Source of the DNA: Planctomycetota bacterium | GTDB lineage: Bacteria; Planctomycetota; MHYJ01; WSZJ01 | Direction: 5' to 3' | Assembly: GCA_009773755.1 (NCBI GenBank) | Contig: WSZJ01000030.1 | Coordinates: 7,955-71,954, forward strand | DNA length: 64,000 nucleotides | Part shown: in pieces, positions 36,503 to 58,288 of the stretch | Numbering within the stretch: the first letter of the stretch is position 1 | Layout of the letters: every line of letters begins with the position of its first letter | Program-made: the position numbers and the translations under genes | Notes under the pieces: generated by a model | Databases searched by the model: none | What the model saw: only the letters and a program-made list of their open reading frames with translations | Told to the model about the DNA's origin: nothing

Positions 36503-36931
36503 AGTCATGGGCGATGGTGAATGCGGATACGAACTACGGACAAACCTGCACGTACCGCCTCCAGACCTTCTTCCGCCGACCCGGTAGCCTCCAGAAATCC
36601 TCACTCCCGTGGAACCTCGAGGTCATCCGCCTGCGAGCCTCCTCGAGGCGCGACAACCCCCTCGAACGCCGACGTGATCGACGTCACCAACGCAGGCGAC
36701 TCCCCGGCACCAGGAGGTAGAACCGTCCCGAGAAGTTCGGGTTCCGTCACGGGCGGGTAGCATCGGCGCGACGTGCGCGAACCTGACGCGGCCGTGCGGG
36801 CCAACGAGCCATTCGCTCGACGCGGCGCAGCGGGGTCGGTAGCGTCGTCGGGATGAAGAGGGCGACAACAGAGCGAATTCCGCGCATCTGCCCCTTGAAC
36901 ACGGGCGGTGCCTAGTTTCGAGGTAGAACTC

Positions 36932-37909
36932 ATGACCAAAGCGAAGGGGCACGACCCCGCAGTGTTTCCACCACCGATGGACCTGCCGAAACTCAATTCC
37001 GTCGAAGAAGTCGTGAGTCTCCTGCGGAGGGGGAATCACCGCCTCTATGTGCGACCGGCAGGTGAGATCCCCCGTTCTCCTGATCGCTGGTACGTCGCCC
37101 GAAATCCGCTGCCCTCCAGCGCGGCTGACCCACTTGTCCGAATCCATCGAACCGAGTCGGCCGCGCCCGGCGCAGAGTATCTGGGTGCCTGCTTCGATGG
37201 CATCATCCAAGGTGACGCGATCGCGGAAGTGCCTGAAAGCGTTTGCACGCAGATCGAGTCGAAACTGGACTCGGACGAGCCGATTCGGTGGCTCTCGACT
37301 CGGCCGATCGTCCGCACGTTCCTGTACCTCGACATCTCGGACTTCTCGACCTACCCTCCGGGGCAGCAGGCACTGATCGTGGCCTGTTTGCCGAAGTTTG
37401 TTAGTGAAGCTCAAAAGGGCCGCCGCGCGGAACACACTGGAACACCGCAGCAGATGATCTGCACAGGCGACGGCTACATCTTTGTCTTTCTCGATCCAGT
37501 GGCGGCAACTTGGTTCGCGGCACAGCTCGCCACGGAGATCGACTACGCCGTCGCGAAGCCTATGGGTTCAGTGGAGATTCACTACCGCATGGGAATTCAC
37601 ATCGGCGAGGTTTTCCCTTTCGAGGAAGGCGCAGAGCGAAATCGCTGGAACTTCGCTGGCGACGGTATCAACGGAGGCCGGCGGGTGCTCGACGCGATCG
37701 GAAGGAATGCGGACGACTTGGTGTTTCTGTCCGGAGACGTCGTGAAGTCGATTCATGCAAAGGCTGAGTGCTCCACGGGTTTCGGCGAGATCATGCAGTA
37801 CTTGGTGAATCGGGGACGGAGAAAGGACAAGCATAAGAAGCCTTGGCGGGTATATGAGCTGAACCACAGGGATGCCGCCTCGAACTCAAGGCAGATCAAG
37901 CCATCATAA
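36932..37909 (+). CDS. class III nucleotidyl cyclase-domain protein with unknown ~125-aa N-terminal domain
   Basis: ATG 36932 (GAGG SD). RTFLYLDISDFS (metal Asp), ICTGDGYIFVF (second Asp), YRMGIHIGEV and NFAGDGINGGRRVLD (Asn/Arg) are collinear with adenylate/guanylate cyclase catalytic motifs. Confidence 0.65.
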   Translation: MTKAKGHDPAVFPPPMDLPKLNSVEEVVSLLRRGNHRLYVRPAGEIPRSPDRWYVARNPLPSSAADPLVRIHRTESAAPGAEYLGACFDGIIQGDAIAEVPESVCTQIESKLDSDEPIRWLSTRPIVRTFLYLDISDFSTYPPGQQALIVACLPKFVSEAQKGRRAEHTGTPQQMICTGDGYIFVFLDPVAATWFAAQLATEIDYAVAKPMGSVEIHYRMGIHIGEVFPFEEGAERNRWNFAGDGINGGRRVLDAIGRNADDLVFLSGDVVKSIHAKAECSTGFGEIMQYLVNRGRRKDKHKKPWRVYELNHRDAASNSRQIKPS

Positions 37910-38550
37910 GTTCGCGATCTGCGCGGGGCGCGAGATCCTCGATGACGGCATGGAGGTTGCCTTTGACGAGGCGACAGACAGGCAGTGGTTCGTGATCGAG
38001 GGCACTTAGCACGCTCAAGCGGGGATACCGTACTGCGCAGGGAGCGGCTTGGCCGAAGCGGCGTTCGCCTTCTTCGCCGTCCACGTCTCGTGCTCATCCC
38101 GTCCAGCCCAGCTTCGCCGCGATCGGCCGCAGGTGCCGCTCGGTGAACGGGACAGAGGGTACGCGGTCCCCTCTCGGAGTTCATCGTGCTAGGGGGTCGA
38201 GACGGTTCGGAAAAGAATCTCTTCTAGTGTCGAGGAGCTTCGATTCGACGACCCTGCGAACCCCTTCGCTTCTCAACAACCTGGCCGAGCGCCAAACAGC
38301 CCGGCGAAGGGATCGTCGGAACTGGAGACCCAGGGCGAAACCAGCCTGTGATTTGAATCCAAGGGATGGGCGCATCAGCCGAAAGAGTTCAAGGATATAA
38401 CCCCACGCCGACTGTTCCAAGACTGAGCCTTGAGCCTGAGACCCGCCTGCTGCCGCCCCGGAGTACCGGCGAGTAATTGCAACGCCTGCGATCGTCGCCA
38501 ATTTGGGGGCGCGCGCCCGCGTTGATCGGGCGTCCCCGCGAGATTCCACT

Positions 38551-41430
38551 CTACACGCTTCTCGCCTTCGAAAGCAGTTCCTCCATGGTGGCGAGATCAC
38601 GTTTCACTACGACCTCCGGCTTGATGAGCTTCATTGCATTGCCTGCGACCTCGACCTCTTCACTGCTCCATTCTTTTGGCAGGGCTCCGACCCAAGAAGA
38701 GCTGATAGGTCCCACGAGAATCCTGGGAATCGCCGATCTTCGGTCGTTCGACGCGGTCTCCGCAAGTCGCTTTGTTTGCTTCGCCGAAGCACTGTTCTTG
38801 ACAGAGATCAACTGGCCAAGCGGCCCAGATCCCACTTTGTCATGTGTAATTCCAAAATATGGGCGCCAAGGCGTGACAGGCTCCGGCTGCAGTAGCAGCG
38901 AATGTTCGTCACCGATTGTTAATCCCCAAGACGCCCCTCGTATCGCATCCACGCCTCGCTGATAGACCCCAAGACTCTTGTCGCCAGCATCCTCAACAAT
39001 CGGAGCCAGACGCCCTCCGAAGACTCGGGACCAATTTAGCAAAGCGTGAATCCCCCTCCTATGCCAGAGAGGTGCTGTGTCGGGAGGAACTCCGGAGGAT
39101 CCCGCCAGATCTACATAACTTAGGTACGCCTCAAGACTTTCGCCGGAGGCGAGTCGAACCCTGTCGGCCTCATAAACCTCTGCGACCTGATCCGCGCCAA
39201 GCAGGGCAGCGGCCCACAATTCAAGCCTTCTCAGCAGTTTCTTGATCGCTTCATGGGTGGTAGCTGATCCAACAGAATCCGCTTCTGGAACCATTAGAAG
39301 GGCGAGCGACTCAACATCCCTTGTGGCAACTCGATCTACACCTAATGCCGTGGTCGCATATGTGGCGACATCCGCGTACCACTTCCATGCACGCAGCAAC
39401 AGACCATCGGGACGTACCCGCCGCACCAGACTCTGGCGCAGATCTTCGTTGTAGGATCCAGTCCGGCTCGACAAGGCGCCATCGATCTCGGGTTGGATTT
39501 CCTCTGACTTGCCCAGGATTTCGACTTTTGCACGCAACCCTGCCAGCGACGCCAAGGCATCGTCCGGCGAACGCGTCGCCCGGGCATCAGGAAAGATAGA
39601 ATCAGTTCGTACCTGTTTCGGATTTGCCTCTAGGTAGGCCTCCAACCCTGAAAGCGCCTCCGAGACGTTTTCGCAAAGGTCGCTCAATCCTCCGTCATTA
39701 GTGCCATGGAGACTCACGTACAGAAGGCGCTGCAGAGTTGTGAACTTCGAGGATGACGAGTGGCAACTGTTCATGATCACTTCCATAGGTGCGATGAAAG
39801 GGGCTAGTCGAGATTCGCGCTGAATTGAGCGCCTAAGACTATCGAATCCCGGTTTCAATACGTACTCTTTCTTGACGGTGTCATACGCATAAAGCTCACT
39901 GAATATTGTTGGAAGGGGCTGTGGCCTACCATTGACATTTGCGCTGGCAAGACGCCCGAATGTGTAGTGGCCAGCATTGGCATGCTCAATTTGCATTCCA
40001 AAATTATGCTGCAGAATAGCAACGGTCTTCTCTATCGTGCCTCGAGAAGCCACGCCTCCCATCATGTGCGTTGCAAAAGCAATTATCATCTCAATCAGGT
40101 GCCGCTCTTTTCTTGCGTTCTCCCCGATCTCTGTCAATCGAAGCGCGCGAGCATGGTCTTCTCTATAAAAGGCGGTCGCTTGAACATAGTCGCACAGTGC
40201 ATCAACTGCAGCATGAATTTCTAGAGGCGACGAGCCCTCCGGAGGGCATTGCAACAGTTCGGAGATTGTTTCGCCGTGGGATTCCCACTTTCTCACATCA
40301 AGGCAGTGGCGATTATGTTCCAAGTACGAGGAATTAAGTCGATCCCGAATCTTCACCATCGTTTCCAAGTAGTCAATCGAGCGACTGTTGTCTTCAATTG
40401 CTCGTTCCATGACTTGCGAGTGAGGATTTCTCAGGTGTTGCAAGATCGCAGGCATTAGGTCTTTGGCAATCGCATTCCCATAGTACCTGATCAGGGGGGT
40501 TGTGTTCGGAGTGACCCGTTCGCGAAGGTTCCTCGGTGAGAAGACATCGGTATTCAAGTACCGGGCCGCCAGTTCAACTCTCAGGCCAAGACTATTCGCA
40601 TCGAAAACGTCCCTCAATCTCGCCCCTGGACCTGAGGTTCCCGATCGAATCATGTCAGCGTAGCCAGCCGCCAGTGCAAATGCTGAGTCCGGCGTTCTCT
40701 TTCGATGATTCGCAAACGCCATCGGCACTAACCTGAGGGTTCCTGAAGATGGCGAATACCAAAGGCGAATTTTGGGAGGAACATCAAAGCTAGGTGGATT
40801 GTCCAGTCTGAATAGAACGCTCGCCGTCAAATGGTCGCCTCGCTTGCCGTAATCAAGGACGTTTCCAAAGCGTGCCGAGGACCGAAGCAACTCCAACCAG
40901 GAATCGTTTGATACTGATTCCGCTTCAAGCACAACTTGATTTGGTCCTGACGGATAGTAGTGATCCAAGCAAATGTCCTGTAACGACCGAAAGAAACGTG
41001 CGTATTCTTCTGGTGACGATACTTCGTAACCGATCTTGACATCGGGTGGCGGGGCAGATAGCGCGGGCCTGCCTGATCGCGGCAATCTTGTAAACAGCAG
41101 GGCATACTTATCAATTGTAGAAAAAGGTCGGCTGCGTAGGTCATTGTAGATCCGTCGTTGAACGCCACCAGCAAAGAGCGTATCGTCAATTAGTGCGGCG
41201 CGCTTGCCGATTAACTGTGAATCGGGAACAAAATCGAATGCCCTCGGGAGCATGATTGTTGGGTTCCGCGCCAAAAGGGGCGGCGCGTTGCGCTTGAGGA
41301 TCTCAAGTGTACGGTCGAGAAGAACTGTGCCCTTGCCCGGCACTGGAATGAGGTAGTCATAGTTCTGGAGGAGAGCGTTTCTTGCGAGGAAGTCGGCCAA
41401 GATGCCAAGTAGTTCTGTCATTCCCTTCAT
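38551..41430 (-). CDS. 959-aa protein: N-terminal phosphoribosyltransferase-like domain, long helical middle, possible palm-like C-terminus
   Basis: YLIPVPGKGTVLL... and KRAALIDDTLFAGGV resemble the PRTase PRPP-binding loop (acidic pair then T-x-G-x-T-like). C-terminal YVDLAGSSG...EDAGDKSLGVY...FGITHDKV is weakly cyclase/GGDEF-palm-like. Low GC. Confidence 0.6.
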   Translation of the reverse strand: MKGMTELLGILADFLARNALLQNYDYLIPVPGKGTVLLDRTLEILKRNAPPLLARNPTIMLPRAFDFVPDSQLIGKRAALIDDTLFAGGVQRRIYNDLRSRPFSTIDKYALLFTRLPRSGRPALSAPPPDVKIGYEVSSPEEYARFFRSLQDICLDHYYPSGPNQVVLEAESVSNDSWLELLRSSARFGNVLDYGKRGDHLTASVLFRLDNPPSFDVPPKIRLWYSPSSGTLRLVPMAFANHRKRTPDSAFALAAGYADMIRSGTSGPGARLRDVFDANSLGLRVELAARYLNTDVFSPRNLRERVTPNTTPLIRYYGNAIAKDLMPAILQHLRNPHSQVMERAIEDNSRSIDYLETMVKIRDRLNSSYLEHNRHCLDVRKWESHGETISELLQCPPEGSSPLEIHAAVDALCDYVQATAFYREDHARALRLTEIGENARKERHLIEMIIAFATHMMGGVASRGTIEKTVAILQHNFGMQIEHANAGHYTFGRLASANVNGRPQPLPTIFSELYAYDTVKKEYVLKPGFDSLRRSIQRESRLAPFIAPMEVIMNSCHSSSSKFTTLQRLLYVSLHGTNDGGLSDLCENVSEALSGLEAYLEANPKQVRTDSIFPDARATRSPDDALASLAGLRAKVEILGKSEEIQPEIDGALSSRTGSYNEDLRQSLVRRVRPDGLLLRAWKWYADVATYATTALGVDRVATRDVESLALLMVPEADSVGSATTHEAIKKLLRRLELWAAALLGADQVAEVYEADRVRLASGESLEAYLSYVDLAGSSGVPPDTAPLWHRRGIHALLNWSRVFGGRLAPIVEDAGDKSLGVYQRGVDAIRGASWGLTIGDEHSLLLQPEPVTPWRPYFGITHDKVGSGPLGQLISVKNSASAKQTKRLAETASNDRRSAIPRILVGPISSSWVGALPKEWSSEEVEVAGNAMKLIKPEVVVKRDLATMEELLSKARSV

Positions 41431-41714
41431 GAAGTGTTCCTGAGCTATTATATGATGTGTGAGTACCCGTCAGTACTGAATTGATTCTTGACGCTCTTTG
41501 GACTCCCACCAAGGGAGTCAGAGATTTCTACCTCATGCGTGGCACCGAATCAAGTGAAACCAGCTTCCGTCGTCGGGAGTGTGGCAACATTTTCATAAAC
41601 CGCGGGTCGTGGAGATGTAAGGTACCAAGACCTTCTTCATCGTCGTGATTTGCGGAGCTCGAGGGCAGGCGGGCTTCGTATCTGAGCCTTGCTTTTGCAA
41701 GGTGGGAGACACTG

Positions 41715-44591
41715 ATGGGCATGAACCGTGGGTCCGAGTGGGCGCGTTGGGATGTGCACCTTCATACCCCCGGGACCGCACTCAACGATCAGTTTCCTGC
41801 AGACTCTATGGACCAGTTCATCGACAAAGTGAACGGCGCTTCTCCCTCCGTGATCGCCTTGGGCGTGACCGATTACCTGTCGGTGGAAAACTACGCCATC
41901 GTCCGCGCTCGGTGGGAAAAGGGGGAGATGCCCAACGTCCTCCTCCTGTTTGCGAACGTGGAGCTTCGGCTCTCGATTCAGACCGAGAAGCCTCAGCCGC
42001 TGAACCTACACATCCTCGTCTCACCCGACGACCCCGAGCACCTTCAGAAAATCAGGGCAAAGCTGGGTCTCCTGACCTTCGACTACAAGAAGGAGCCCTA
42101 CCAGTGCACGCCCGAGGACTTGGCTAGACTTGGGGCGGTCTGTTGTCCTGAGATCCAGGACAAGAACCTCCGGCTCTCGGCAGGTGTGAATGCGTTCAAG
42201 CCCGATTTCGGCAAAGTTCGCACTTGGTTTGAGGGTGACAAGTGGTTGAAGGACAACTGCCTCGTCGCCGTTGACGGTGGAAAGAACGCCGGCGCAAGCG
42301 GACTTCAGGGAGACGGGGGCATGGTTTCAGTGAGAAAGGAGATTCAGCGGTTTTCGGACATCGTTTTTTCTGGAAATCCCAAGGATCGCGAATTTTGGCT
42401 CGCGCAGAATCCTGAATTCAGAGAGGAGGTTCTGAGGGAGTACCGCAGACCAAAGCCTTGTCTTCACGGATCGGATGCGCACCGTCTCGAAGAGGTGCTG
42501 GAACCGAAGGAAGAGCGGCGCTGCTGGATACGGGCCCGCCCCACGTTTGACGGTCTCAGGCAAGTCTTGTTCGAGCCCGGAGAGCGCGTCTGGCTTGGTT
42601 CCGAGCCGCCTACGCGGCCGCGGAACAACTGGGTGCGAGGCTGTGGGATTCGTGACGCCGAATGGTCCAAGACTCCAGATGTGCCACTGAATGCGGGCCT
42701 GGTCGCGATCATCGGCCCGAGGGGATCGGGGAAGACGGCACTCGCCGACCTAATCGCGCACGGCGCAGACTCATTCGTGTCGGGAGGATCGTCCTTCCTA
42801 GACAAGGCGATAGACTTCATGGGCGGAGCCAAGGTCGACCTGACTTGGGCCGGAGATCCGGAGAATCCCACTCGGCGAGTCGTCGGAGAAGGAGTGCAGG
42901 ACTCCCCTGGAGCCAGGTACCTTTCCCAGCATTTCGTTGACCAACTGTGCTCCCCGCAGGGACCGACTGATGGACTGGTTGATGAGCTCGAGCGAGTGAT
43001 ATTCGACGCGACCGAGGAAACTCAACGACTCCGGGCATCGTCGTTCGCGCAACTTCGAGAAGCAGTCACCCAGGGCAGCGCAGCACGAGTTGAGGCGCAC
43101 CGGATCGAGATCACCAAGTGCAACACTGAGATCGCGAAAGAAATCGCGTCGAAGGAACGCTTGGCACCCTGCGAGCTGCGACTCGTGAAGTTGCAAGAGA
43201 CTGCGACTGAACTTGCGAATACCGCTTCGAAATTGGTCGTGAAAGGGAAGGAAGCGAAAGTCGAACAGCTTCGACAACTACGAGAATCCACCGCCCTGAT
43301 CGAGGAGAAGATCGCGCAGCTTCTTGCGATCGATCAGCAGATCCAGGACGTCGCTGGCGAACTCGCAACTCTGCGACAGTACATGGAAGATCAGTACGCC
43401 TACATGTCGGCTCGGCTGACTTCGATGGGACTTTCTGCCGTCGACGTGGAGTTTTTCCGACTCCGATTCACAGGAGATGTGGACTCGGTACTCCAGCGAC
43501 GCAGGGAGCAAATCGTCGGAGAAATTGAACGTCGCAAGACTGGGCCAGATGGTGGAGGCCAGCAAGTAGGCCTGCAGAAAATGAAGGAGCAGCTGGCAGC
43601 CCTTCAGAAGGAGGTGTCCGGAGACCTCGCACGTGAGCATCAGTTAGTCGAGATTCAGAAACGCGAGAAACTCACGCGACAGGAGAGAGAGAAGGTCTCG
43701 GCAGAAATTGTCGTCATCAAGTCCGCCAGCGAGAGAATCCGCGTCGCGAGCAAGCGGCGCATGGATCGTTATCTGCAAGTCTTTGACGAGATCCGAGGTC
43801 AGAAGTCGGCGATGGAGCGACTGTATGCCCCGGTCACCGACCGTCTGCGCAATGGGCCTCTCGAACGCCGGAAACTTGAGTTCTACGTTCGAACCGAAGT
43901 CAACACGCCTGCTTGGGCTGCGCGTGGAGAGGCTCTGATTGACCTGCGGAGAGCCTCGCCGTTCCAAACTCCAGGCAGTCTCCTTCTCAGTGCTAGACGG
44001 TCGCTCGAAAAGCCGTGGAGGGAGGGCGATCGAACAAGCATCGAGAAGGGCCTTCAGGAGATGTATCAGGCATTCAGCGAGGGAAAACAGATGCTTGTGA
44101 AGGAAGCCACCTTGGCCAGTCTAGCGGAATGGCTGTTCTCGACGGATCATGTGCGCATTTCGTACGGCATCCGTTTCGAAGGAACGGAGATCGAAAAGCT
44201 GTCTTCAGGCACTCGAGGGATCGTGCTCCTCATGCTCTACCTCGGGCTAGACGACCAGGACGATCGGCCACTTCTCATCGACCAGCCAGAGGAAAACCTG
44301 GATCCTCAGTCGGTATTCGAGGTACTCACGGAGTACTTTAAGCTCGTGAGGAAACGGCGACAGGTCATCTTGGTCACCCACAACGCCAATCTCGTCGTGA
44401 ACACCGACGCGGATCAGGTCATCATCGCCAGCGGTGTGCGAGACCAACTTGGAAGTTTACCATCGATCCGGTACGAGGCGGGAGCGTTGGAGGATTCTGA
44501 GATTCGGGCAAGGGTCTGCCAGATCCTCGAAGGCGGCGCCGAAGCATTCCTCCAGCGAGAACGGAGGTACGGCTTGCAACGACTTCTCTAG
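41715..44591 (+). CDS. PHP-domain + ABC/OLD-type ATPase protein (Ppl-like single-gene defence architecture)
   Basis: N-terminal WDVHLHTPGT...GVTDY...ANVELR (PHP metal ligands). Walker A GPRGSGKTALADLI, a long coiled-coil insertion, signature-like LSSGTRG, Walker B LLIDQPEENLDP and VTHNANLVVNTDADQVI. Confidence 0.7.
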   Translation: MGMNRGSEWARWDVHLHTPGTALNDQFPADSMDQFIDKVNGASPSVIALGVTDYLSVENYAIVRARWEKGEMPNVLLLFANVELRLSIQTEKPQPLNLHILVSPDDPEHLQKIRAKLGLLTFDYKKEPYQCTPEDLARLGAVCCPEIQDKNLRLSAGVNAFKPDFGKVRTWFEGDKWLKDNCLVAVDGGKNAGASGLQGDGGMVSVRKEIQRFSDIVFSGNPKDREFWLAQNPEFREEVLREYRRPKPCLHGSDAHRLEEVLEPKEERRCWIRARPTFDGLRQVLFEPGERVWLGSEPPTRPRNNWVRGCGIRDAEWSKTPDVPLNAGLVAIIGPRGSGKTALADLIAHGADSFVSGGSSFLDKAIDFMGGAKVDLTWAGDPENPTRRVVGEGVQDSPGARYLSQHFVDQLCSPQGPTDGLVDELERVIFDATEETQRLRASSFAQLREAVTQGSAARVEAHRIEITKCNTEIAKEIASKERLAPCELRLVKLQETATELANTASKLVVKGKEAKVEQLRQLRESTALIEEKIAQLLAIDQQIQDVAGELATLRQYMEDQYAYMSARLTSMGLSAVDVEFFRLRFTGDVDSVLQRRREQIVGEIERRKTGPDGGGQQVGLQKMKEQLAALQKEVSGDLAREHQLVEIQKREKLTRQEREKVSAEIVVIKSASERIRVASKRRMDRYLQVFDEIRGQKSAMERLYAPVTDRLRNGPLERRKLEFYVRTEVNTPAWAARGEALIDLRRASPFQTPGSLLLSARRSLEKPWREGDRTSIEKGLQEMYQAFSEGKQMLVKEATLASLAEWLFSTDHVRISYGIRFEGTEIEKLSSGTRGIVLLMLYLGLDDQDDRPLLIDQPEENLDPQSVFEVLTEYFKLVRKRRQVILVTHNANLVVNTDADQVIIASGVRDQLGSLPSIRYEAGALEDSEIRARVCQILEGGAEAFLQRERRYGLQRLL

Positions 44592-44659
44592 GAGGGTGCG
44601 AGGTCGGCAATCGTCGCGAGCCGTCCTCGTCTGTTGGGACGAGAGGGCAATCGCGGCAA

Positions 44660-46132
44660 TCAAGGAGTTTTCCTGCTGGCGACGAATCGGCGGACCGCTC
44701 GGATGGCTGAGAGAGCCTCCTCTCGACCGATGGCAGCTTTGGATCTCATCTCAACCTTGGCGTGAACATGATTTCGGAATTGCCGAAGGCTGTCGGAAAC
44801 ATAGACGTTTCCAGGTGAAAGCAAGCCTGCCTCTTCGCATCGGTCAATCATCGAATCGAACGTCCAGGCGAGCGCTTCCTTCGAGTCCTTTCCTGCGGCC
44901 GCTTTGCACTTGCTCTGCACCTTGGGCCAGTTGGCTTGAAGCATGTCGACGAGGAGCGCCTCGATCATTCCGCCAGCACAAACAATCGACATCTTCCAAG
45001 CACCAGCAAGGTAGCACGCGATCACCTCACGATAGTCGCGCTCCAGGAGCTTCCGCATCTCTGGCGACGCCACTATCGAGCCGAAGTCGGGTAATTGAAA
45101 ACACTCCGGCTCGATCCGCTTCTCGATCGCCAGCGCCAGTCCTTCCATGAAATCTCGGAGAACTGCGCTTGACTTCGCTCCCAGGATGCCGGCGGTCCCC
45201 GAGAGTGAGTGCTGTTCAGCGGCAGCATCGTAGAGTTGGCGTACTTCCCGAAGCAATGTCGGGGCTTCGGAGACGCCGCGTTCCAGGAATTCCTCCACGA
45301 TCTCAGCATGTCGGATGGATGCGAGGCAACTGGCGAGAGCCCCGCCGTACTGGAGAGCGCGCGGCTTCCAGTCCGGCATCTGGTGTGTGTTGTTCGAGAT
45401 GAGATCTACGGCGTTTTTCAGGTGAGGGAGCGCTTCCTTGAGAAAGGCGGAAGCGGAAGCTGTGTTGAGTACTCGCAGTTCAAGTTGACCTCGCAGGTAT
45501 GGCGCCAGCGCGACAGCGAACTCGAAGCGGCTCTCGTACAGTGGAGCGAACTCCGTCCATCTGGGAAGCGATCGAAGCGCCTCCAACGCCCTCGTCGCGT
45601 CAGCCAAGGACATTCTGCAGTCGTCAAACCGCGCGAGGAGTGCGAAATGCATCGTTTCATTCACTGCCGCCTCGAGCAGCGATTCGGCTGCGATTGCTTC
45701 GAACCGCTCCCGTTCCTCGACGAAGGTAGTGCCGAGGAGGGAGAACCGGTGAGCGGCTTCTCGGAATGAACCACCCGCCTCTTCGAAGTCGAGATCTCCC
45801 GCTTCCTCGTAGCCTTGGCAGTACTTCTGATAAGCGCGCACGCGACGGAGGTTCCCCTGATCACTTGCTAACTCGAACTCTTTTGCGCTCCTGGCGAGGA
45901 TGCCACGCGTTTCTTCCCACGATCCAGTCGTCTTCAGGATGGCAAGTGCATGGCAGAAGACCGCGCATGCGAACGCTCTACGGGAATTGGCCTGCCATGA
46001 GGTCCTCACCATCTGTTTCGAGAGCTGCTCGTAGAGCTTGCTTGCGAGCTCGAAGTCGAAACTCTGGCGCGCGGCTTCGGCGCGCCGGTACTTTTCGGCG
46101 CCATCAGCGGAGAGATTCAACGGTCCGAGCAT
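44660..46132 (-). CDS. helical (TPR-like) protein with C-terminal DUF4145/HEPN-like domain
   Basis: ATG 46132 with GAGGCGAG upstream (GTG 46180 is possible). The C-terminus reads DYREVIACYLAGAWKMSIVCAGGMIEALLVDML...MIDRCEEAGLLSP...LRQFRNHVHAK, i.e. an R-x4-H motif in the DUF4145-type helix arrangement. Confidence 0.55.
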   Translation of the reverse strand: MLGPLNLSADGAEKYRRAEAARQSFDFELASKLYEQLSKQMVRTSWQANSRRAFACAVFCHALAILKTTGSWEETRGILARSAKEFELASDQGNLRRVRAYQKYCQGYEEAGDLDFEEAGGSFREAAHRFSLLGTTFVEERERFEAIAAESLLEAAVNETMHFALLARFDDCRMSLADATRALEALRSLPRWTEFAPLYESRFEFAVALAPYLRGQLELRVLNTASASAFLKEALPHLKNAVDLISNNTHQMPDWKPRALQYGGALASCLASIRHAEIVEEFLERGVSEAPTLLREVRQLYDAAAEQHSLSGTAGILGAKSSAVLRDFMEGLALAIEKRIEPECFQLPDFGSIVASPEMRKLLERDYREVIACYLAGAWKMSIVCAGGMIEALLVDMLQANWPKVQSKCKAAAGKDSKEALAWTFDSMIDRCEEAGLLSPGNVYVSDSLRQFRNHVHAKVEMRSKAAIGREEALSAIRAVRRFVASRKTP

Positions 46133-46487
46133 GTAGACTCGCCTCGATCGAGGGGTGTTCGACCTTGATCGCCGTCCCACACATAAGGTTCACAATCATA
46201 CAGAGGTACTTCAACTCTGCCGTGGAGAGTTCAGTTGTCTGAAACACCGTTCCTTGCCTGAGCCCAAGAGCCGCGAGAGCTGCGCCTCCAGGAACCAAGC
46301 GGGGGCGGGATCGTTGTCGAGAGAGAAGCGCGCCGGTTCCGGATCGCGTTCGGAAAAAGGCGGACGGCTTTGAGTCCACACCCGGTAGGGCGAGCCGGTC
46401 TGAATTCGGACTAGGACGATGCTGGGCGCCACAGGAACTCAGCGCATGTCCTACTCACGCAGGAGTGATTGCATTCTGACCGGGCTT

Positions 46488-48794: not shown

Positions 48795-48798
48795 CGGG

Positions 48799-50064
48799 CT
48801 AGCGCAGCATCTTTCGGATGAAGCTGAGAGTCTCTGGCTGCTCAAAGTAGTTGGTGTGATGCACACGATCGGTACTCTTGAAATCGAAGATCTGGTCGTC
48901 GCCGAGCCTCGCCGTATCCGCAAGCTCAATCATCGACTCGCTGTCGACCACCAGGTCGTTTTCGCCGTCGAAGACGAAACTGGCAGCGAGATCCTTCAAT
49001 CGACCGCCAGGTCGCCGGAAGTACCTCCAGAACTTCCACCCTGGCTTTTCGCTTTCGAAATTGGAGCGCACCGCGAAGTAGCGGCTCCGCCACTCGACAG
49101 CCGCGCTTCGAAGGCTCAACAGCTCAGAAGCGTTGCCCACACGGCTCTGCGCCGCCATCCCAGGGAGGAGAGCGATGGCAGCATCGATGGCCGGAGTTTT
49201 TGAGGCGATCTTTGTAACGGACGAAATTATGCGGAACACTCCGGTGAGGACTGTCAGAAATGGAAGGCCAGCGCTGGCCGCACCTAGGACGTTCGCGATG
49301 TTGGAGAGGAGGCTCAGGCTGTGTTTGATGTTGGGTGGAGAAGCGAGCCCGGTGCCGGCCAATGGCGAACCCACGAACACTGCTCTCCGCCGGTTGGCGG
49401 GCCCCCTGTCGAACGCCTCGAGCCACCAGCGGGCGACAAGTCCGCCGCGACTGTGGCAGACGACATCCACCGCGGCCTTCGACTCCCGGAAGTGAAGTGC
49501 GAGTGCCCGAGCATTCAGCATCGGGCTCACCGACAGAGTGGGATGATCGAATGTTATCACCTGATCGTATCGGGTGTTCATCCAATCGAGGAATGATCTC
49601 CCCTCTGGATTCTTTGCGATCCCGGCCAGGATGTTCTCGGTGTTGGAGAATGTGCCGTGGACGAGGAGTAAGATCCTTCCTTCATCGGATGGCCTGTGGT
49701 CCTTGGTCGACTCAAGGTTCCCGTCTTGCCAGCGACGAAGTCCCTGGTTCGGAGTGAGCTTCCTGTCGAGCGACTCGAGCCAATCGGTGACCTGTGAATG
49801 ATCGAGCTTCGCCAGCACTCGTTCCCACACGAGGATTCCTGGAGAAGAAATACCCTGCGCACCGCGGCGCCGAGGACCAGTCGGGACGAACTGCGGAGAG
49901 TCGTCCACTTGAAGGACCCCGTCGTGCTCCACGATCCTCATGGTGAGGGCTCCTTCACTTGCGATGGGCCTGACCGCTCCTCTGCGGCGGGCCGGCTTGG
50001 GGCACGCGCCCAGCTCCTGGGTCAGCTTGTCTAACGCGGCTGACAACGTATCCCCTCCGTTCAT
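48799..50064 (-). CDS. lipase-like alpha/beta hydrolase with ~140-aa N-terminal extension
   Basis: AAGGAGG SD. ILLLVHGTFSN (oxyanion region), VVCHSRGGLVA (nucleophile elbow), FDGENDLVVD and RVHHTNYF (Asp/His candidates). Confidence 0.7.
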   Translation of the reverse strand: MNGGDTLSAALDKLTQELGACPKPARRRGAVRPIASEGALTMRIVEHDGVLQVDDSPQFVPTGPRRRGAQGISSPGILVWERVLAKLDHSQVTDWLESLDRKLTPNQGLRRWQDGNLESTKDHRPSDEGRILLLVHGTFSNTENILAGIAKNPEGRSFLDWMNTRYDQVITFDHPTLSVSPMLNARALALHFRESKAAVDVVCHSRGGLVARWWLEAFDRGPANRRRAVFVGSPLAGTGLASPPNIKHSLSLLSNIANVLGAASAGLPFLTVLTGVFRIISSVTKIASKTPAIDAAIALLPGMAAQSRVGNASELLSLRSAAVEWRSRYFAVRSNFESEKPGWKFWRYFRRPGGRLKDLAASFVFDGENDLVVDSESMIELADTARLGDDQIFDFKSTDRVHHTNYFEQPETLSFIRKMLR

Positions 50065-50156
50065 CGTACTACCTCCTTAACTCTGCTCCGGAGAGTGCTT
50101 CGGGGCCCAAGATCCCATCGAAAGGAGAGGCTCGGATTCTCCCCATGAGGGATGGG

Positions 50157-51374
50157 CTAATCGACGCTCACAATTCCTCCCTGCACCCGCCCGGGTGGCG
50201 GGAATAAATAAAACGCAATCGACCGCCAGCCCACAAAATAGATTGACGTTCCAACGAGCAGTACGAACAAACCCAGGAGCAACCTGACCAGCTTTCGTTC
50301 GAATTTGTCGACACCAAGCTTGGCATCGGCATCGATTCCCCAGCGTTTCGATGTGGCTGTGAGGACGGCAATCAACACCACCATCACTAGGAAGGTTACC
50401 GACAAACCTAGCCACACGTGCGATTGCTTCAGTCCAGCGATCAGTACAACAAGAGCTGATACGACAGTGGACGAAACAAAATAGAATCGAACCAATCGAC
50501 TCTTGGCCAACAAAAACTGTGGCGCGAAACTGGCCACGCCACAAGCAAGTAGAGATGTTGTGACGACAAGGCACTCCGCCATGCGGAAGCCCCAAAGGTC
50601 CGCACGACCAATTATCGCACTCTCTAGGGAGTTAAAGGCGTGCCCTCGCAGGAAGGAAACTGTTTCTCCCGGGTATCCGGCCATCCAGCTAACTCCCACC
50701 GACGTTATTGCGAGCGCAAGAAACACCAAGCCCGAAGAGATCTGGGATTCTGGCTTTTGCATCCCGGCAATAACGTGAGACCACATCAGCGAAGCGACCA
50801 GATAAATCATCAAGAGAGCTAAAAAAGCAGCAATGCGCAATGAGATCTGAACGTCTGCGCTCCAGGCCGCAATTAACCCGAGAGCAGCGCTCATTGAACT
50901 CGTGGCGAAGAACATTAGGTCAAACAAGTCGCTGTGCGTTATCGGCGGGCGCGGTTGTGATGACAAGAGTGTCGCGAAGACTCCATTCGACCCTACTCCC
51001 AACAGCTCTTCCAACTTCTTGCCCGCCTCGGTACAGGATCTATAGAGTTCGCGATTGCGGATTTCCAACCCCCAGAATAGCAACGAGCCGGCGGACACGC
51101 AGAACGGAATTGCCCACTGAACAGCTAGAAGCAGATCTTTCGTCTTGATTGTCGCAAAGGCGACACAGTTCGCGGCTACAAACGTGAAAAAACCAACTAG
51201 AAGTCTGTGCCGCCATCCTAAGTAATGAATGAAGAGATCGACAACCTGAGCGTAGACAGCTTCAGGATTGCCAATTTCCTTCGGTCGACCGGGGGCGTCT
51301 TCCTTCCTCGCGAGGCCGGCATCTGGTCGAACAATGACCTTGAAGGTTCTTTCCGGCGGCTCTCCTCCGGCCAT
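50157..51374 (-). CDS. polytopic membrane protein (about 9 TM segments)
   Basis: GGAGGTG SD. Nine hydrophobic stretches, e.g. LLVGFFTFVAANCVAFATI, LLLAVQWAIPFCVSAGSLLFWGL and HVWLGLSVTFLVMVVLIAVLTA. No family recognised. Confidence 0.7.
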   Translation of the reverse strand: MAGGEPPERTFKVIVRPDAGLARKEDAPGRPKEIGNPEAVYAQVVDLFIHYLGWRHRLLVGFFTFVAANCVAFATIKTKDLLLAVQWAIPFCVSAGSLLFWGLEIRNRELYRSCTEAGKKLEELLGVGSNGVFATLLSSQPRPPITHSDLFDLMFFATSSMSAALGLIAAWSADVQISLRIAAFLALLMIYLVASLMWSHVIAGMQKPESQISSGLVFLALAITSVGVSWMAGYPGETVSFLRGHAFNSLESAIIGRADLWGFRMAECLVVTTSLLACGVASFAPQFLLAKSRLVRFYFVSSTVVSALVVLIAGLKQSHVWLGLSVTFLVMVVLIAVLTATSKRWGIDADAKLGVDKFERKLVRLLLGLFVLLVGTSIYFVGWRSIAFYLFPPPGRVQGGIVSVD

Positions 51375-51568
51375 CGAATCACCTCCGAATCCAATTCCGT
51401 TAGCGTTCCTCGGGCGTCACGCGAGCGACATTGACAATTAGAGTAGAGTATCTCTGGAAGTCTGCTGCAGAAGACTCATTAGTGTTCTTGAGCATCGCCT
51501 CGATAATTCCGAGGTGATGGAGAGATGACACTTTCATCATCATAAATCTGTGCAGCGACTACCTGGGT

Positions 51569-53260
51569 CTACTTCTCTTCCTTCTTCTCCTCGCGACGAG
51601 CAAGCCCCGCCTCGATTTGCTTCTTGATGTACTCCTGAAGCGCTTCCTTCAAACTCGTGTTGAAGGTCTGCGCCGCAGCAGCGGTCTGTTCGACAAGGTG
51701 CTTTGCGTCGCTTGAGTCCTTCTCATTGACTTTGAATTTCACGCCCCAGGTACCCGAGGCAATCTCTCCAACTCGCGTCCATGGCGGCGGGTTCGGCTCA
51801 TTACCTTTGGTGAAGTGATTGCGGAGCGTAGCTTGGTCACTCAGGACGTTTGCCTTCCAAATCGCCTGCGTTGCTTGGGCCGATTTCAATCGCCTTTCGA
51901 TCTCTTCGCTTTCGGTTCGTCTGCCTTCAAAAGCCGCTTGGTATTTCCGCAAATCGCCGAACAGCCTCTTAGCATCTTCTGACGCTTTCGAAAGAGCGTC
52001 GTTTGCCTTTGCGAGCGCCTTCTCGGAGTCCACGATCGGCTGAGATCCTGGTGGGTTGTCCCTCTTTGCGAACTCAAGATCCATTTTGCAGGACGAGACG
52101 TTCTTCTCGGCGGTTCTAAGCGCAGTTCGTGACTCTTTCAAACTCGCCTTCGCAACATCGACTTCGTCTTCCGCAGCCTTCTTCAGAATCTCAACTTCGT
52201 TTTTCAAGACGATCACGGCTCGCACCTCACCTCCGCTCAGCCAGGTTAGCTGATCATCGAAGCGTTTGATAAGTGGAGAGATCAGTTCATCGACCCCCCC
52301 GGGCCTCCGAACAGAACGAAACCATCCTTCGGACTTTGCTCTGCTGGGCAAAAACAGGTCGTTATCAGGAGCGTCTAGGTCGACGTAAGGCAATTTGAAG
52401 GTCGATGTGGTAAGAGTGGGAGTGGACAGTTCTCCGTCCTTGGAAAATGCTTCCAGCACGTCCAATTGCACCTCCAAGGACACCTCTCCATCCGCGCCGA
52501 TCAGGAATTGCCAGAAGAGGATCGGAAATAGCCCGTAACTCCACCACCGAGTGTCGGAGACACGAGCTTTTGTCGCAATCACTCGACCGGCTAGTGGAGC
52601 AATCAAGAACGTGCCTTCGTCCTTCTGACATATACCTAGGATCAACTCTACGGCGGGTCGCTCTTCCGGGCTCTGATTCTCATAGGATTTAGCGGTAGGC
52701 TTGTAAATGTGACCTTCAACTTCGCGAATGAGACGTACTGCACTGTACTTCGGAACCCATTTTGTCTGTTGCATCTCTATGATCGCATAGTTGATGCCGG
52801 GCACCTTGTAACTAAATTCAGCCTCATCCGCCGCCTTGCAAGGAACGTAAATCGTTCGTTCACAGAGAACCCAAAACTCGTTGTCGGCGGCGGATTGGGC
52901 ATACTCGGCCTCGTGCTTTGCGGCCTCTGCTGCTACAGCGCGCTGCATGAGATCCAAGGCGATGCCCGACAGGGCTCCCGCGGCGTCAGATCCGACTTTA
53001 GTGATCAGAGCCGCAGCCGCGGCACTTGATGTCGCTAGAGACTTCTCGTCCTTGCTCCAATTCGCAGGCTCAGCATTGAACGCAGCCCGGTAGCGATCTG
53101 TCAGTCCCATTGCGGCGAGGTCGTCTGGGGTCAGGAAGTCAACGCTGATGCGCTCTCCGCTTGACATGTCGGAGTTCTCGTTCCGCGGAAGGAGGAACTG
53201 GCATCCGACACCCAGCACGCAGTTGGCCAAAGCGAGAACGAAGAGACATCTCCTCGACAT
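51569..53260 (-). CDS. putative lipoprotein with C-terminal coiled-coil region
   Basis: GAGGAG SD. MSRRCLFVLALANCVLGVGC is a signal peptide plus Cys. There is a long Lys/Glu/Ala heptad-like region (KNEVEILKKAAEDEVDVAKASLKESRTALRTAEKN...). No family recognised. Confidence 0.65.
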   Translation of the reverse strand: MSRRCLFVLALANCVLGVGCQFLLPRNENSDMSSGERISVDFLTPDDLAAMGLTDRYRAAFNAEPANWSKDEKSLATSSAAAAALITKVGSDAAGALSGIALDLMQRAVAAEAAKHEAEYAQSAADNEFWVLCERTIYVPCKAADEAEFSYKVPGINYAIIEMQQTKWVPKYSAVRLIREVEGHIYKPTAKSYENQSPEERPAVELILGICQKDEGTFLIAPLAGRVIATKARVSDTRWWSYGLFPILFWQFLIGADGEVSLEVQLDVLEAFSKDGELSTPTLTTSTFKLPYVDLDAPDNDLFLPSRAKSEGWFRSVRRPGGVDELISPLIKRFDDQLTWLSGGEVRAVIVLKNEVEILKKAAEDEVDVAKASLKESRTALRTAEKNVSSCKMDLEFAKRDNPPGSQPIVDSEKALAKANDALSKASEDAKRLFGDLRKYQAAFEGRRTESEEIERRLKSAQATQAIWKANVLSDQATLRNHFTKGNEPNPPPWTRVGEIASGTWGVKFKVNEKDSSDAKHLVEQTAAAAQTFNTSLKEALQEYIKKQIEAGLARREEKKEEK

Positions 53261-54163
53261 GGCACTCTCCTCAATTGGAAATCCGGATCACACGTCGGGG
53301 TTCCCACGTCAGCAAGTCAAAACGGCTCAACCCCTCATCGGCAGTTACTTGAATCTAAGAGACTGATTGCTGATCTCATCAGCCCCCACCTCACCGGACA
53401 CGGCAAATGACTTAACCAACTCTCTTCGGACATCGCCTTTGAGGAATTGCTGGGACTCTCCGTTGGGCGTCTTACTTGACGTGATCTGAGTCGAGGCCTT
53501 GTGGTGGACTGGTAACCAGCTGGTCCTTTGCCGCCGGACGACCGCACAACTCGAGTTGCCAGGTAGATGCTTCGTGTTGGATCTCTCTCAGCGCCACGGA
53601 CGCTGATTTCTGCAGAACGACATCCGCTTCACGAGGGTTTGGAAGGGACGCCCTCGCCGCGAGTTGAGAGGGGTTCTGTTGTGGCACCTGGATTGAGCGC
53701 GGCACCAAGACCAGGTTCGATCCAAGGGAGCAAGTAGCCCCATTTCGCCGACCTCATCTCCACCCCTCCTGACACAACCAGCCAGAAACCTGCGACTCCC
53801 TCCCGGGGAATGTGGCAGAATTTACCGGTCCTGGGCGCGTGTGGTCAAGAGAAATGCACCCCCCATGATGAGAAAAAATGAAACCGGAGTTCAGTCTTGT
53901 ATCAAACTGATGCTTCGTGAGCTGACGGTGGTCGCCGTGCCGGGAACACTCCGGTCGACTTCCTGTCTCCCACGGGCTACACGCGGGATGTGATCATCCG
54001 TCACGACAAGAACGAGCGACGTTGCAGAGATCGAAGGGGAAGATGGACGCGATTCGAGAGAGCTGCCGCAGGTGCAGTCGCTGTCCGAGCGATCCCGTTC
54101 GCTCCGTACACAGCTGAGCCTTCGCACTCTTCAGCTTTGCAGTAGAGCGACCTATCGGGAGTT

Positions 54164-55729
54164 CTAGCTCGACCGGCGAGCGAAGAGCAACTCGTTCACG
54201 GCTTGCAGGAGTTCGCTTGGGTTGAACGGTTTCTGCAGGAATCGAACGTGGTCGCGGTTCAGGACGTCGGGTCCGAGTTCGTCCTTGGGATACCCCGAGA
54301 CGAACAGCACCGGGAGTTCGGGCTGGGTCTGCCACAGTCGCCCGGCAAGTTCGCGGCCGCCCATCGCTGGCATCACGACATCTGAGACGAGGATTTGAAC
54401 TTCCCGAGCGCTCCGCTCAAGTACTTCCAAGGCCGCCTTTCCGTCTCCGGCTTCAAGCACTTCGTAGCCGTCGCGGCGCAGCGCTATCGACACGACGTTG
54501 CGGACCGACGGCTCATCTTCGACGAGCAACACCGTAACACCGCTCGAGGATTGCACCGATTCCGATGGTGGGAGATTCGCGGTCGGACGCGCTACCTCGG
54601 TCGAAGACGGCAGCAGGATCCAAAACACGCTTCCTGCACCCGTCTTGCTTTCGACGCCGATCTGGCCTCCGTTCTGCATTACGATTCCGTGGCACGTTGC
54701 CAAACCGAGGCCGGTTCCCTTGCCTTGCTCTTTCGTGGTGAAGAAGGGCTCGAAGGCGTGCTCGAGCGCCTCAGGGCTCATTCCGGAGCCGGTATCGGCC
54801 ACTTCCACGCGGACATGAGGGCTGGAACGCTCTGACTTCGTTCCTGTCTTCGAGTCTCCGTCGAGCATCACGTTTGCTGTCCGAATCTCGAGCGTTCCGC
54901 CGTTTGGCATGGCGTCGCGAGCGTTCGTGGCGAGGTTCATCAGGATGTCTTCGAGTTGTCCGGGGTCGATTCGCACGCGCGCGAGGCCTGTAGCCAAAAT
55001 CGTTTTCTGCGTGACGCCGGCGCCCAGCTCTCGGCTCAGTGTTTCACGCATGCCCTCGATAGCAGCATTGACATCAACGACTCGTGGCTGCGCGGTCTGT
55101 TTCCGTGCGAATCCCAACAGCTGCCTCACCAACGCGGACGCGCGCAGAGCGGTCTTTCGAATGGCGTCCACTTCCGCTGGAGCGCTTCCGGGTGACCGAC
55201 GGTCCAGCTGGTCCGCGTACCCGAGGATCGCGGTCAGCATGTTGTTGAAGTCGTGAGCAACTCCGCCAGCCAGCCGCGCTACGCTCTCGATTTTCTGCAC
55301 TTTGAGCGCCTGCGCTTCCAAGCGCTTCAGCTCCGTGATGTCCTCGACCATCGCCTGCCACCCTCGGCGTCCGTCCAGCATGATCGGCTCAAGGCTCAAC
55401 CTGGTGAGGTAGTGCGAACCGTCCTTCCTCTTGAAGCGAACCTCGTGCTGTCTCAGGAACCCTTGCTTCCGCGCGAGAGCCAGCGCCCGGTCTCGATCCT
55501 CCGAGAATGCGTACAGCGCCGCGACGTTGCCGATTCGTTCGACTTCTTCGCGCGTGTACCCGCCGGGGCGCATCATCGCCTCGTTGAAGGCCAGCAGCGC
55601 TCCTCGCTCGTCTGCTACGCCCAGCCCGACGGGCGAGCTCTCGAACAAGGTCCTGTAACGCGCCTCGCTCTCACGCAGGGCCATCTCCGCGAGCGAGTTG
55701 CCTTCGCTTGGTGGCAACGAGTTGGTCAT
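54164..55729 (-). CDS. PAS sensor hybrid histidine kinase (PAS-HisKA-HATPase-REC)
   Basis: PAS region YRTLFESSPVGLGV. H-box ARLAGGVAHDFNNMLTAILGY. NLATNARDAM...DTGSGM...GTGLGLATCHG. C-terminal REC VLLVEDEP...ILVSDVVMPAMGG...LQKPF. Confidence 0.85.
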   Translation of the reverse strand: MTNSLPPSEGNSLAEMALRESEARYRTLFESSPVGLGVADERGALLAFNEAMMRPGGYTREEVERIGNVAALYAFSEDRDRALALARKQGFLRQHEVRFKRKDGSHYLTRLSLEPIMLDGRRGWQAMVEDITELKRLEAQALKVQKIESVARLAGGVAHDFNNMLTAILGYADQLDRRSPGSAPAEVDAIRKTALRASALVRQLLGFARKQTAQPRVVDVNAAIEGMRETLSRELGAGVTQKTILATGLARVRIDPGQLEDILMNLATNARDAMPNGGTLEIRTANVMLDGDSKTGTKSERSSPHVRVEVADTGSGMSPEALEHAFEPFFTTKEQGKGTGLGLATCHGIVMQNGGQIGVESKTGAGSVFWILLPSSTEVARPTANLPPSESVQSSSGVTVLLVEDEPSVRNVVSIALRRDGYEVLEAGDGKAALEVLERSAREVQILVSDVVMPAMGGRELAGRLWQTQPELPVLFVSGYPKDELGPDVLNRDHVRFLQKPFNPSELLQAVNELLFARRSS

Positions 55730-56395
55730 GCGAATCGACTGACCAGAATCATCGCCGAAAGCGCGTGCTTGGATCGAAGCATGTTTCTCCTTCAGCCATG
55801 GACGTCGAAGCGCGTGAACCAGGAAGCTTCGCGAGCCGAATCCCGCTCATCGTGTGCCCGTCATTCCCTCTCCCAAGGGGAAGCGAGCTTAACCCGGATT
55901 CTGGCAGGGATGCCCAGCTCCTGATCCGCTACGCTTCGGACGAAGAGAAGCTGACGCCTGGCAGAATCCACATCACTTCTGCGCCAGGCTCGACCTTGAA
56001 CGGCGAGCTTGGATTGGTGGGGCCAGATCCGAGGGAGCGCGTGAAATGCATAAAGCTGGGGCATTTCATGGCTTTTCGGAAAGATGAAATCTTGTGGTCT
56101 CGAACCAATCGGAAGCCGCCTGGCGTGCGAAGGTGCACGCGCCACTTTTTTGTCCAGAGAGCGTCGTTTCCGCTTGACACGAATTTGAAAACTGCGGACT
56201 TTGTGAAGCAGAGTCCGGCGCAAGGGCGAGGCGAGTAGTTTCCAGCTAGTGGCGGCCAGCTTGCGCTTGTCCACTTGGAGCGGCCGTCGTGAGAGTTGCC
56301 ATCTTCATCGACGGAAAGAACTTCCATGCCGGCTGGAAGGACGCAGACCGCACGCCAAGCCTCACGGTCGAGAGTTCGTGTTTCGTACATCAACA

Positions 56396-56467
56396 TGGGC
56401 GATGACGGGATCGAACCGCCGACCCGCTGCGTGTAAAGCAGCCGCTCTGCCGCTGAGCTAATCGCCC
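56396..56467 (-). tRNA. tRNA-Val (anticodon UAC)
   Basis: The reverse complement GGGCGAT-TA-GCTC-AGCGGCA-GAGC-G-GCTGC-TTTACAC-GCAGC-GGGTC-GGCGG-TTCGATC-CCGTC-ATCGCCC-A folds as a 72-nt cloverleaf. The anticodon loop UUUACAC gives UAC. CCA is not encoded. Confidence 0.9.
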
Positions 56468-58276: not shown

Positions 58277-58288
58277 CATGGGAAATTC

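Follow-up and report, generated by a model that had tools for sequence, protein, structure and literature searches.

Genomic islands linked to tRNA genes include those integrated by tyrosine integrases, among them P4-type islands and integrative mobilisable elements (Williams 2002, PMC100330, as cited in PMC10121019). Surveys of the hotspots of the E. coli pan-genome (PMC10121019) and of the core defence hotspots of Pseudomonas aeruginosa (PMC10250203) report tRNA-linked defence islands and also hotspots without identifiable mobilisation, as summarised in PMC10121019 with reference to PMC10250203 and PMC100330. The locus described here lies in a 64,000-nt stretch of contig WSZJ01000030.1 from a Planctomycetota genome (the window, with positions numbered from its first letter) and consists of a single tRNA-Val(UAC) gene with about 20 kb of low-GC DNA beside it. 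To our knowledge, the mobile elements and defence systems of this phylum have been little studied. The segment from 34.9 to 56.4 kb is probably a mosaic, horizontally acquired accessory region at a hotspot adjoining this tRNA gene, within which a pair of attachment sites frames 36.5 to 56.4 kb, where the cargo was later swapped piecemeal. In kind it is an ordinary genomic island, roughly 21 kb long and with mainly conflict-type cargo. It is unusual in having no recombinase gene, in being inverted relative to the same locus in related genomes and in carrying a conserved attachment-site module that encodes a small protein.

The assembly that contains the window is a metagenome-assembled genome (MAG) of 5.78 Mb in 302 contigs, with 65.7% GC and a completeness of 88%. 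In segments of 2 kb the GC content of this genome has a mean of 0.656 and a standard deviation of 0.026. Every 2-kb segment between 37 and 54 kb falls at or below the 2.1st percentile of the genome, and those at 39-41 kb and 51 kb lie under all other segments. Tetranucleotide distance, calculated over 4 kb, is at or above the 98th percentile at 36-56 kb, with maxima at 38-44 and 48-54 kb, while the flanks are ordinary. The two profiles show that the low-GC block is real and that it is internally heterogeneous. An earlier interpretation made from the letters alone (the sequence-only reading) had proposed a low-GC island of composite make-up. The sliding-window profiles bear out both points, since GC and tetranucleotide composition at 36-56 kb belong to the most extreme 1-2% of the genome and the tetranucleotide signal is normal outside.

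The corresponding locus was compared in seven genomes of the same genus (G001 to G007), the closest of which is G003, with flanks 81-85% identical to those of the window. In G002 and G007 the site is empty: an MFS gene is followed by 40-120 nt, tRNA-Val(UAC), 37-48 nt and an RHH gene. G006 has a 6.1-kb insert with an ISL3 transposase, the 5.8 kb inserted in G003 contain a sigma-like gene along with genes for a hybrid kinase and a FIST protein, and other DNA follows the tRNA in G001 and G004. Comparison of the island with the relatives' loci by tblastx revealed no common cargo. The island genes do not occur at any relative's locus; an empty site or other DNA is found there. The foreign composition, the empty sites and the patchy cargo together show horizontal acquisition into a locus that is variable throughout the genus.

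The foreign DNA begins to the left of the low-GC block. Similarity to G003 and G006 is lost shortly past the start codon of the TPR-hydrolase gene (34872), and the next two genes form an AbiEi/AbiEii pair whose GC content at third codon positions (GC3) is 0.71-0.76, compared with 0.84-0.91 in the flanking genes. AbiE genes were not found at this locus in the relatives. The GC3 values and this absence place the start of the foreign region about 1.6 kb to the left of 36.5 kb. The start at 36.5 kb given by the sequence-only reading has to be moved to about 34.9 kb for the foreign DNA as a whole.

At the other end, homology to the right flank common to the genus begins at 56509, just beyond the tRNA gene and a short upstream stretch that moves with it. 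The tRNA-Val(UAC) gene is on the minus strand, as the sequence-only reading had it, and its 3' end (56396) therefore faces left, into the low-GC block. The distal edge of this block carries a direct repeat of the tRNA 3' end. The 11-mer CATGGGCGATG has exactly two copies in the window, at 36506-36516 and 56394-56404, against an expectation of 0.07, and none of 100 shuffled sequences contained two or more. Beyond the 11-mer the similarity is 12 of 19 positions after a 6-nt insertion, which is weak by itself and is backed by the comparative data: the repeat is kept at 88-93% identity in G003 and G005 at the far edge of tRNA-Val-linked variable DNA, in a position equivalent to the tRNA tip, as would not be expected of a chance match. 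The earlier interpretation of this repeat as a decayed att site is supported as far as the att type is concerned. Simple decay does not describe it, since the repeat starts a conserved module with a small open reading frame (ORF) apparently under purifying selection. An Rfam search over 30-64 kb found only the tRNA, plus spurious matches on a palindromic repeat at 30.7 kb. Elsewhere in the same genome, contig C69 carries an array of at least 27 tRNA genes numbered by ARAGORN, in which tRNA-Val(CAC) and tRNA-Val(GAC) are adjacent with 1 nt between them.

The stretch at 36507-36561 has counterparts at the far edge of the G003 insert (93% identity) and next to the RHH gene of G005 (88% identity), and in both genomes it is a direct repeat relative to the tRNA. 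The conservation continues for about 140 nt as the small ORF that starts at 36514. An alignment of seven copies of the ORF has 12 invariant residues, and the synonymous share of differing codons is 34% in its frame and 10-28% in the other five frames. From these figures the ORF appears to be under purifying selection and the module is probably coding. Profile searches with the ORF recovered exactly one copy in six of the eight genomes of the genus and none in four other genomes of the order, and a metagenome scan for the element recovered one 1-kb contig. A decayed tRNA pseudogene with tRNA-like folding was considered for the 55-bp element and rejected, because the T-arm-like stretch cannot form a stem (judged by eye) and because of the synonymous excess in the forward frame.

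Three configurations of the module are found, all with the core GGGCG(A/T)TG. In the unsplit configuration, a GTTCGT-rich arm is followed by the core and then by the ORF (metagenome contig L047, G001:C198 and G006:C214). In the configuration split at tRNA-Val(UAC), the arm adjoins the tRNA 3' end while the core and the ORF lie 20 kb away in the window and 5.8 kb away in G003. In the third, the core and the ORF abut a flank termed F, which is the sequence that follows tRNA-Val(CAC) in G002 and tRNA-Val(UAC) in G001; G005 has this arrangement, as does G002:C60 at a point 3 kb downstream of tRNA-Val(CAC), and the repeat in these two genomes runs on into the duplicated tRNA-Val flank. The tRNA-side arm of the window resembles the ORF-side arms of L047 (p<0.001 in shuffle tests) and G001:C198 (p=0.007), as well as the tRNA-side arm of G003 (p=0.004). 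At its sixth position the core varies with the type of tRNA, with A in UAC-type copies (GGGCGATG) and T in CAC-type copies (GGGCGTTG). The G002 copy matches the 3' end of tRNA-Val(CAC) at 16 of 20 positions with no insertion, and the G006 copy has 11 nt, GGGCGATGACG, in common with the UAC gene.

The unsplit site in G001:C198 lies within a low-GC block of at least 15 kb (13.3-28.4 kb, L048/L022; GC 0.55-0.62 versus 0.70-0.73), which also contains a Schlafen/AlbA_2-like protein and paired sigma-factor-like and WD40-like genes. No recombinase-like protein was seen among the translated ORFs of that block, which were read by eye only, with no family search.

Recombination with the tip of a tRNA gene is what tyrosine-integrase islands do. 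The split and unsplit arrangements of arm, core and ORF are those that reciprocal recombination of an attP-like site with the tip of tRNA-Val would leave, and this pattern, together with the core letter that tracks the tRNA type, supports the att-type interpretation of the 11-mer. In the simplest scheme, a circular element with an arm-core-ORF site would have recombined with the tip of tRNA-Val, leaving at the tRNA end the core (the last ~10 nt of the tRNA) followed by the arm, and at the far end the same core followed by the small ORF. The frame would have been kept after integration while its cargo was replaced piecemeal. The AbiE pair lies just outside it. A site-specific origin of the frame is, on the whole, somewhat favoured; the preference stays this slight because the frame has no associated recombinase, encloses unrelated cargo and is single-copy, and because of the flank duplication in G002.

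The observations that weigh against a site-specific origin start with the recombinase. The statement of the sequence-only reading that there is no integrase holds in every search: six-frame searches at E<=1 found no tyrosine recombinase or remnant (PF00589) and no serine recombinase (PF00239) on the contig, and tblastn with the seven tyrosine recombinases encoded elsewhere in this genome, where one serine recombinase is also present, returned only noise over the island. The two gene-poor stretches at 53261-54163 and 55730-56365 showed no integrase similarity in these searches, and none of the relatives' contigs with the tRNA-Val locus or the element encodes an integrase. The core is just 10-11 nt long. 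The G006 arm stands 45 nt from the core and its likeness to the window arm is not significant in the shuffle test. The element is restricted to the genus with one copy per genome, which fits an old domesticated scar as well as a mobile element. The window, G003 and G002 hold unrelated cargo inside the same frame, which means that today's 20 kb did not arrive as a single element. In G002, flank F of tRNA-Val(CAC) is found at both ends, which needs a second site variant or a tandem duplication, and the AbiE pair outside the frame is not accounted for by the same event. With no recombinase gene left, the island is immobile today or reliant on an enzyme encoded elsewhere; it is probably immobile.

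The tRNA gene has the same direction as the MFS gene in all six relatives with a linked left flank, and the RHH gene is downstream of the tRNA or the element in G002, G005, G006 and G007, where that flank is linked. The window has its tRNA on the other strand, pointing away from the RHH gene, so that the tRNA and the island together (about 34.9 to 56.5 kb) are inverted with respect to the standard orientation of the genus. G003 has the same divergent pairing of tRNA and RHH gene with the whole frame flipped back and a 258-bp RHH stub on the other side, implying at least two orientation changes in the clade. Searches for inverted or direct repeats at the inversion breakpoints gave only short, chance-level matches. 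Such recurrent changes caution against setting island boundaries from a single genome.

The arrangement is reproduced in other assemblies. A 37-kb contig from ERZ27284375 is 100% identical over 32932-41909 and 48164-61729 and covers both junctions, contigs from ERZ27284376, SRR8863439 and SRR8438314 show the same left side (99.9-100% identical), and three assemblies of 37, 77 and 129 kb agree on the arrangement, which is thus not an assembly artefact. Contigs assembled at k=31 (Logan) from SRR8863439 and SRR8438314 stop and resume at the 29-mer 36510-36538, which long-k assemblies pass through, so that this 29-mer must have a second sequence context in those samples.

The main rival to a site-specific origin is a core hotspot at which no recombinase acts. 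The tRNA-Val gene and the small ORF would then be conserved neighbours on either side of a region in which foreign DNA comes and goes, through illegitimate recombination or through homologous exchange in the flanks. The core and arm would be left over from a single ancient event, or from a tandem duplication of tRNA-Val, and would have had no role in the arrival of the present cargo. Such a hotspot would explain why none of the copies in the eight genomes is accompanied by a recombinase and why the same frame holds unrelated cargo in different genomes. It also fits the single-copy, genus-limited element with its apparently selected ORF, the duplication of tRNA(CAC) plus flank in G002 and the GC mosaic of the island, and it agrees with published reports of defence hotspots for which no means of mobilisation could be identified (PMC10250203, as cited in PMC10121019). 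It does not predict the split and unsplit pattern of arm, core and ORF, which reciprocal site-specific exchange does and which is seen at the UAC gene in two genomes, nor the dependence of the core letter on the type of the target tRNA. An origin of the present island in this way is rather unlikely on these grounds, even as the foremost competitor.

A further proposal is that the island is still mobile or invertible. The core would be the target of a recombinase from another part of the genome, or of one within the island that has escaped recognition, and the population would contain excised, inverted or swapped-cargo forms. The breaks of the k=31 contigs of two independent runs on both sides of the 29-mer, inside the core and the start of the ORF, would be expected in such a population, the orientation changes recur (in the window, and in G003, where the RHH stub is flipped), and the recombinases elsewhere in the genome offer candidate enzymes. 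The breaks could stem from a co-occurring sister species with the same conserved 29-mer, the inversion breakpoints (~34.9 kb and 56508/9) are not at the core, and the assembly contains only one copy of the element. Present mobility is improbable. The related and equally doubtful suggestion that the arm-core-small-ORF module is a live recombination site for tRNA-Val genes would have its recombinase encoded elsewhere or of an unrecognised type, would read the contig breaks at 36510-36538 as population heterogeneity and would make the 68-aa protein a site-specific accessory factor. If this were true, members of one population could differ in the DNA from the tRNA to the small ORF, through exchange, excision or inversion of the cargo. 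Coincidence of the repeat, or an arrangement created by MAG assembly, is by far the least credible explanation. The genome is a MAG in 302 contigs at 88% completeness, and an 11-mer taken alone has a chance expectation of a few percent if several candidate words are allowed; the independent assemblies from other samples that give both junctions at 99.9-100% identity, and the placement of the repeat in a conserved module beside tRNA-Val-linked DNA in other genomes, largely refute it.

The features of the region are listed in Table 1.

Table 1. Features of the variable region and its borders, in window coordinates.
Feature	Position	Strand	Basis or remark
Left homology limit (~34910), then AT-rich promoter-like stretch	34912-34979		Left breakpoint of variable, inverted region
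AbiEi antitoxin/transcriptional regulator, 217 aa	34980-35633	+	PADLOC AbiEi 2.9e-48; NCBIfam TAA_AbiEi 1.4e-13; GC3 0.71
AbiEii nucleotidyltransferase toxin	35630-36502	+	Pfam PF08843 4.2e-26; start overlaps AbiEi stop
Core direct repeat CATGGGCGATG, attR-type	36506-36516		Same letters as tRNA 3' end + 2 nt
Conserved small ORF, 68 aa, MVNADTNYGQTCTYRLQTFFRRPGSLQKSSLPWN...	36514-36720	+	First codons overlap pseudo-tRNA-Val 3' fragment read antisense
Class III nucleotidyl cyclase-fold protein with unrecognised N-terminal domain	36932-37909	+	Structure model
139-aa ORF, downstream of and overlapping 959-aa gene	38181-38600	-	Called in independent assembly
959-aa protein with N-terminal phosphoribosyltransferase (PRTase)-like domain, rare family	38551-41430	-	Lowest-GC gene, 53.3%
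TrlF-family PHP/AAA-like ATPase, stand-alone gene	41715-44591	+	NF045780 564 bits, cut-off 350, full length
490-aa protein, candidate conflict gene	44660-46132	-	
Four-gene operon: 563-aa, 405-aa, DUF7379 (421 aa), CHAT protease (768 aa)	46488-53260	-	Gene calls in L040
~900 nt without convincing ORF	53261-54163		Possibly decayed sequence between modules
Hybrid histidine kinase, PAS-HisKA-HATPase-REC	54164-55729	-	Pfam; accessory member of large paralog family
~640 nt without convincing gene	55730-56365		
Arm (GAGAGTTCGTGTTTCGTACATCAACAT) adjoining tRNA 3' end	56366-56395		Homologous to sequence directly upstream of small ORF in unsplit copies
tRNA-Val(UAC)	56396-56467	-	ARAGORN and Rfam; only UAC isoacceptor gene in assembly
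tRNA upstream promoter-like region (~41 nt)	56468-56508	-	Moves with tRNA

The cargo qualifies the region as a defence island, since it contains a complete AbiE pair, for which the 217-aa AbiEi gene call comes from other assemblies (L041/L044), and a Ppl-related TrlF ATPase (PADLOC, NCBIfam, Pfam), together with CHAT, cyclase-fold and PRTase candidates. A PHROGs search with ten island proteins matched no phage protein family, so the structural, replication and packaging genes of a prophage or phage satellite are not in evidence. The sequence-only reading had named five kinds of cargo: a cyclase-domain protein, a PRTase giant, a Ppl-like ATPase, a HEPN-like protein and a CHAT operon. Four of these are upheld, with the qualifications given below, and the HEPN-like assignment is not confirmed.

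Neither Pfam (to E<=10) nor PDB phmmer nor PHROGs matched the sequence of the cyclase-fold, the 959-aa or the 490-aa protein, and the first two have been assigned with the help of structure models. For the cyclase-fold protein, an AlphaFold2 model based on a multiple sequence alignment (pLDDT 82.6) gave a Foldseek list whose top 50 entries are all adenylyl or guanylyl cyclases, with E down to 7.5e-10 and TM 0.6-0.76 normalised to the target. The model confirms a class III cyclase fold, and some homologs are named class 3 adenylate cyclase by JGI. None of the neighbours of this gene matched an effector or cNMP-binding family, as found in Pycsar/CBASS-type defence. A word-indexed search of 5.8 billion proteins retrieved the 959-aa protein alone, and a set of 1.84 billion representatives yielded just 45 distant relatives. 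Of 18 aligned relatives 11 match PF00156, and the top Foldseek matches of its model are HGPRT/PyrR over ~140 residues at E ~1e-3, which supports an N-terminal PRTase head as one part of the protein and leaves ~800 residues beyond it. The overlapping 139-aa ORF has no family match in Pfam or PHROGs.

The ATPase is assigned to the TrlF family of PHP/AAA ATPases and is related to Ppl, with scores of 92-110 bits against Ppl models (110 bits with NF042955, for which the cut-off is 1000). TrlF-type ATPases occur in 11 of 301 sampled genomes of the phylum. A literature search on TrlF and DUF7379 gave nothing usable. A two-gene system of TrlF and the divergent 959-aa gene was considered and rejected, since the TrlF homologs in G003 and G115 have no common neighbours. 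The G003 homolog (L036, G003:C26 10143-13230; 49% identity) begins 140 nt past tRNA-Arg(CCT), stands alone and has a tyrosine integrase ~4 kb beyond it, and it represents a second tRNA-linked site of the same defence-type gene. The 490-aa protein, claimed earlier as HEPN-like, has no match in Pfam, PADLOC, NCBIfam or PDB sequence searches. The genes around its single homolog (63%) are of the NYN, Schlafen/AlbA_2, integrase, SIR2 and SocA types, a neighbourhood that supports a conflict context only.

Pfam identifies the CHAT (PF12770, 1.8e-14) and DUF7379 (PF24096, 7.3e-38) members of the four-gene operon, which two further upstream genes complete. Of the 301 phylum genomes sampled, 3 have the DUF7379 partner, and it is missing from all three sampled members of the same genus. 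The histidine kinase, which the sequence-only reading described as a high-GC gene inside the island, does make the island composite. Its composition is intermediate, not host-like, with 62.3% GC and a GC3 of 0.74 compared with 0.84-0.91 in the host. Its closest homolog is at another locus in G003 (66%) and all others are at most 48% identical. It was considered as a conserved neighbour of the tRNA and rejected, because the G003 neighbour is 39% identical and in the opposite orientation, the 66% homolog being elsewhere.

The surroundings of the region are themselves variable. The operon of RHH, membrane protein, radical-SAM and Lgt genes (56552-60640) is present in the window, G002 and G001, and in G003, G005, G006 and G007 it is cut down to an RHH stub beside the 60645 gene. 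Directly left of the G001 RHH gene is a group II intron reverse transcriptase/maturase (L024, G001:C179 3983-5932). Dozens of copies of a ~127-nt palindromic repeat, found in the window at 30742-30868, occur in either orientation in this genome and in all those of the same genus. The repeat resembles a MITE/REP-type element, and Rfam gives only spurious microRNA-type matches to it. Another repeat of ~340 nt at ~61760-62100 has copies 84-94% identical on at least six other contigs of the genome, and is found in the relatives as well.

The locus documents how an island of defence genes is anchored at a tRNA gene in the Planctomycetota, with empty sites and both junction types, and it defines a compact attachment module of an arm, a 10-nt core and a conserved 68-aa ORF with no adjoining recombinase. 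It also brings to attention several uncatalogued conflict-gene candidates: the nearly orphan PRTase-headed 959-aa protein, the cyclase-fold protein without a recognised effector and the four-gene CHAT/DUF7379 operon.

Among described systems, the AbiE type IV toxin-antitoxin/abortive infection system is matched most directly, the two genes being adjacent and overlapping with strong model matches, and at the sequence level the pair seems indistinguishable from it. The ATPase resembles Ppl in its PHP-type N-terminus, in an ABC/OLD-type ATPase with a long insertion and in being a stand-alone gene in islands adjoining tRNA genes. It nevertheless belongs to the TrlF family, with 564 bits against a cut-off of 350, compared with 110 against 1000 for the Ppl model.

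In common with published defence islands and core hotspots, the window has several defence-type genes clustered at a tRNA-associated variable locus; some of the published ones also have no identifiable mobilisation, and AbiE is a typical occupant. The window differs in that only AbiE and the TrlF/Ppl-related ATPase match catalogued systems, whereas the cyclase-fold protein, the PRTase giant, the 490-aa protein and the CHAT/DUF7379 operon are uncatalogued candidates, and in that the relatives' hotspot holds non-defence cargo (a kinase, a FIST protein, a sigma factor-like protein and an ISL3 transposase).

The likeness to the tRNA islands of tyrosine integrases lies in the position of the island at a tRNA 3' end with a short direct repeat of the tRNA tip at the far end, in its foreign composition, in the empty site of close relatives and in its accessory cargo. 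Unlike those islands, it has no integrase or excisionase gene or remnant, its distal repeat is embedded in a conserved small ORF, its type of frame is single-copy in each genome with different cargo in every one, and the tRNA gene is inverted together with the island relative to the flanks.

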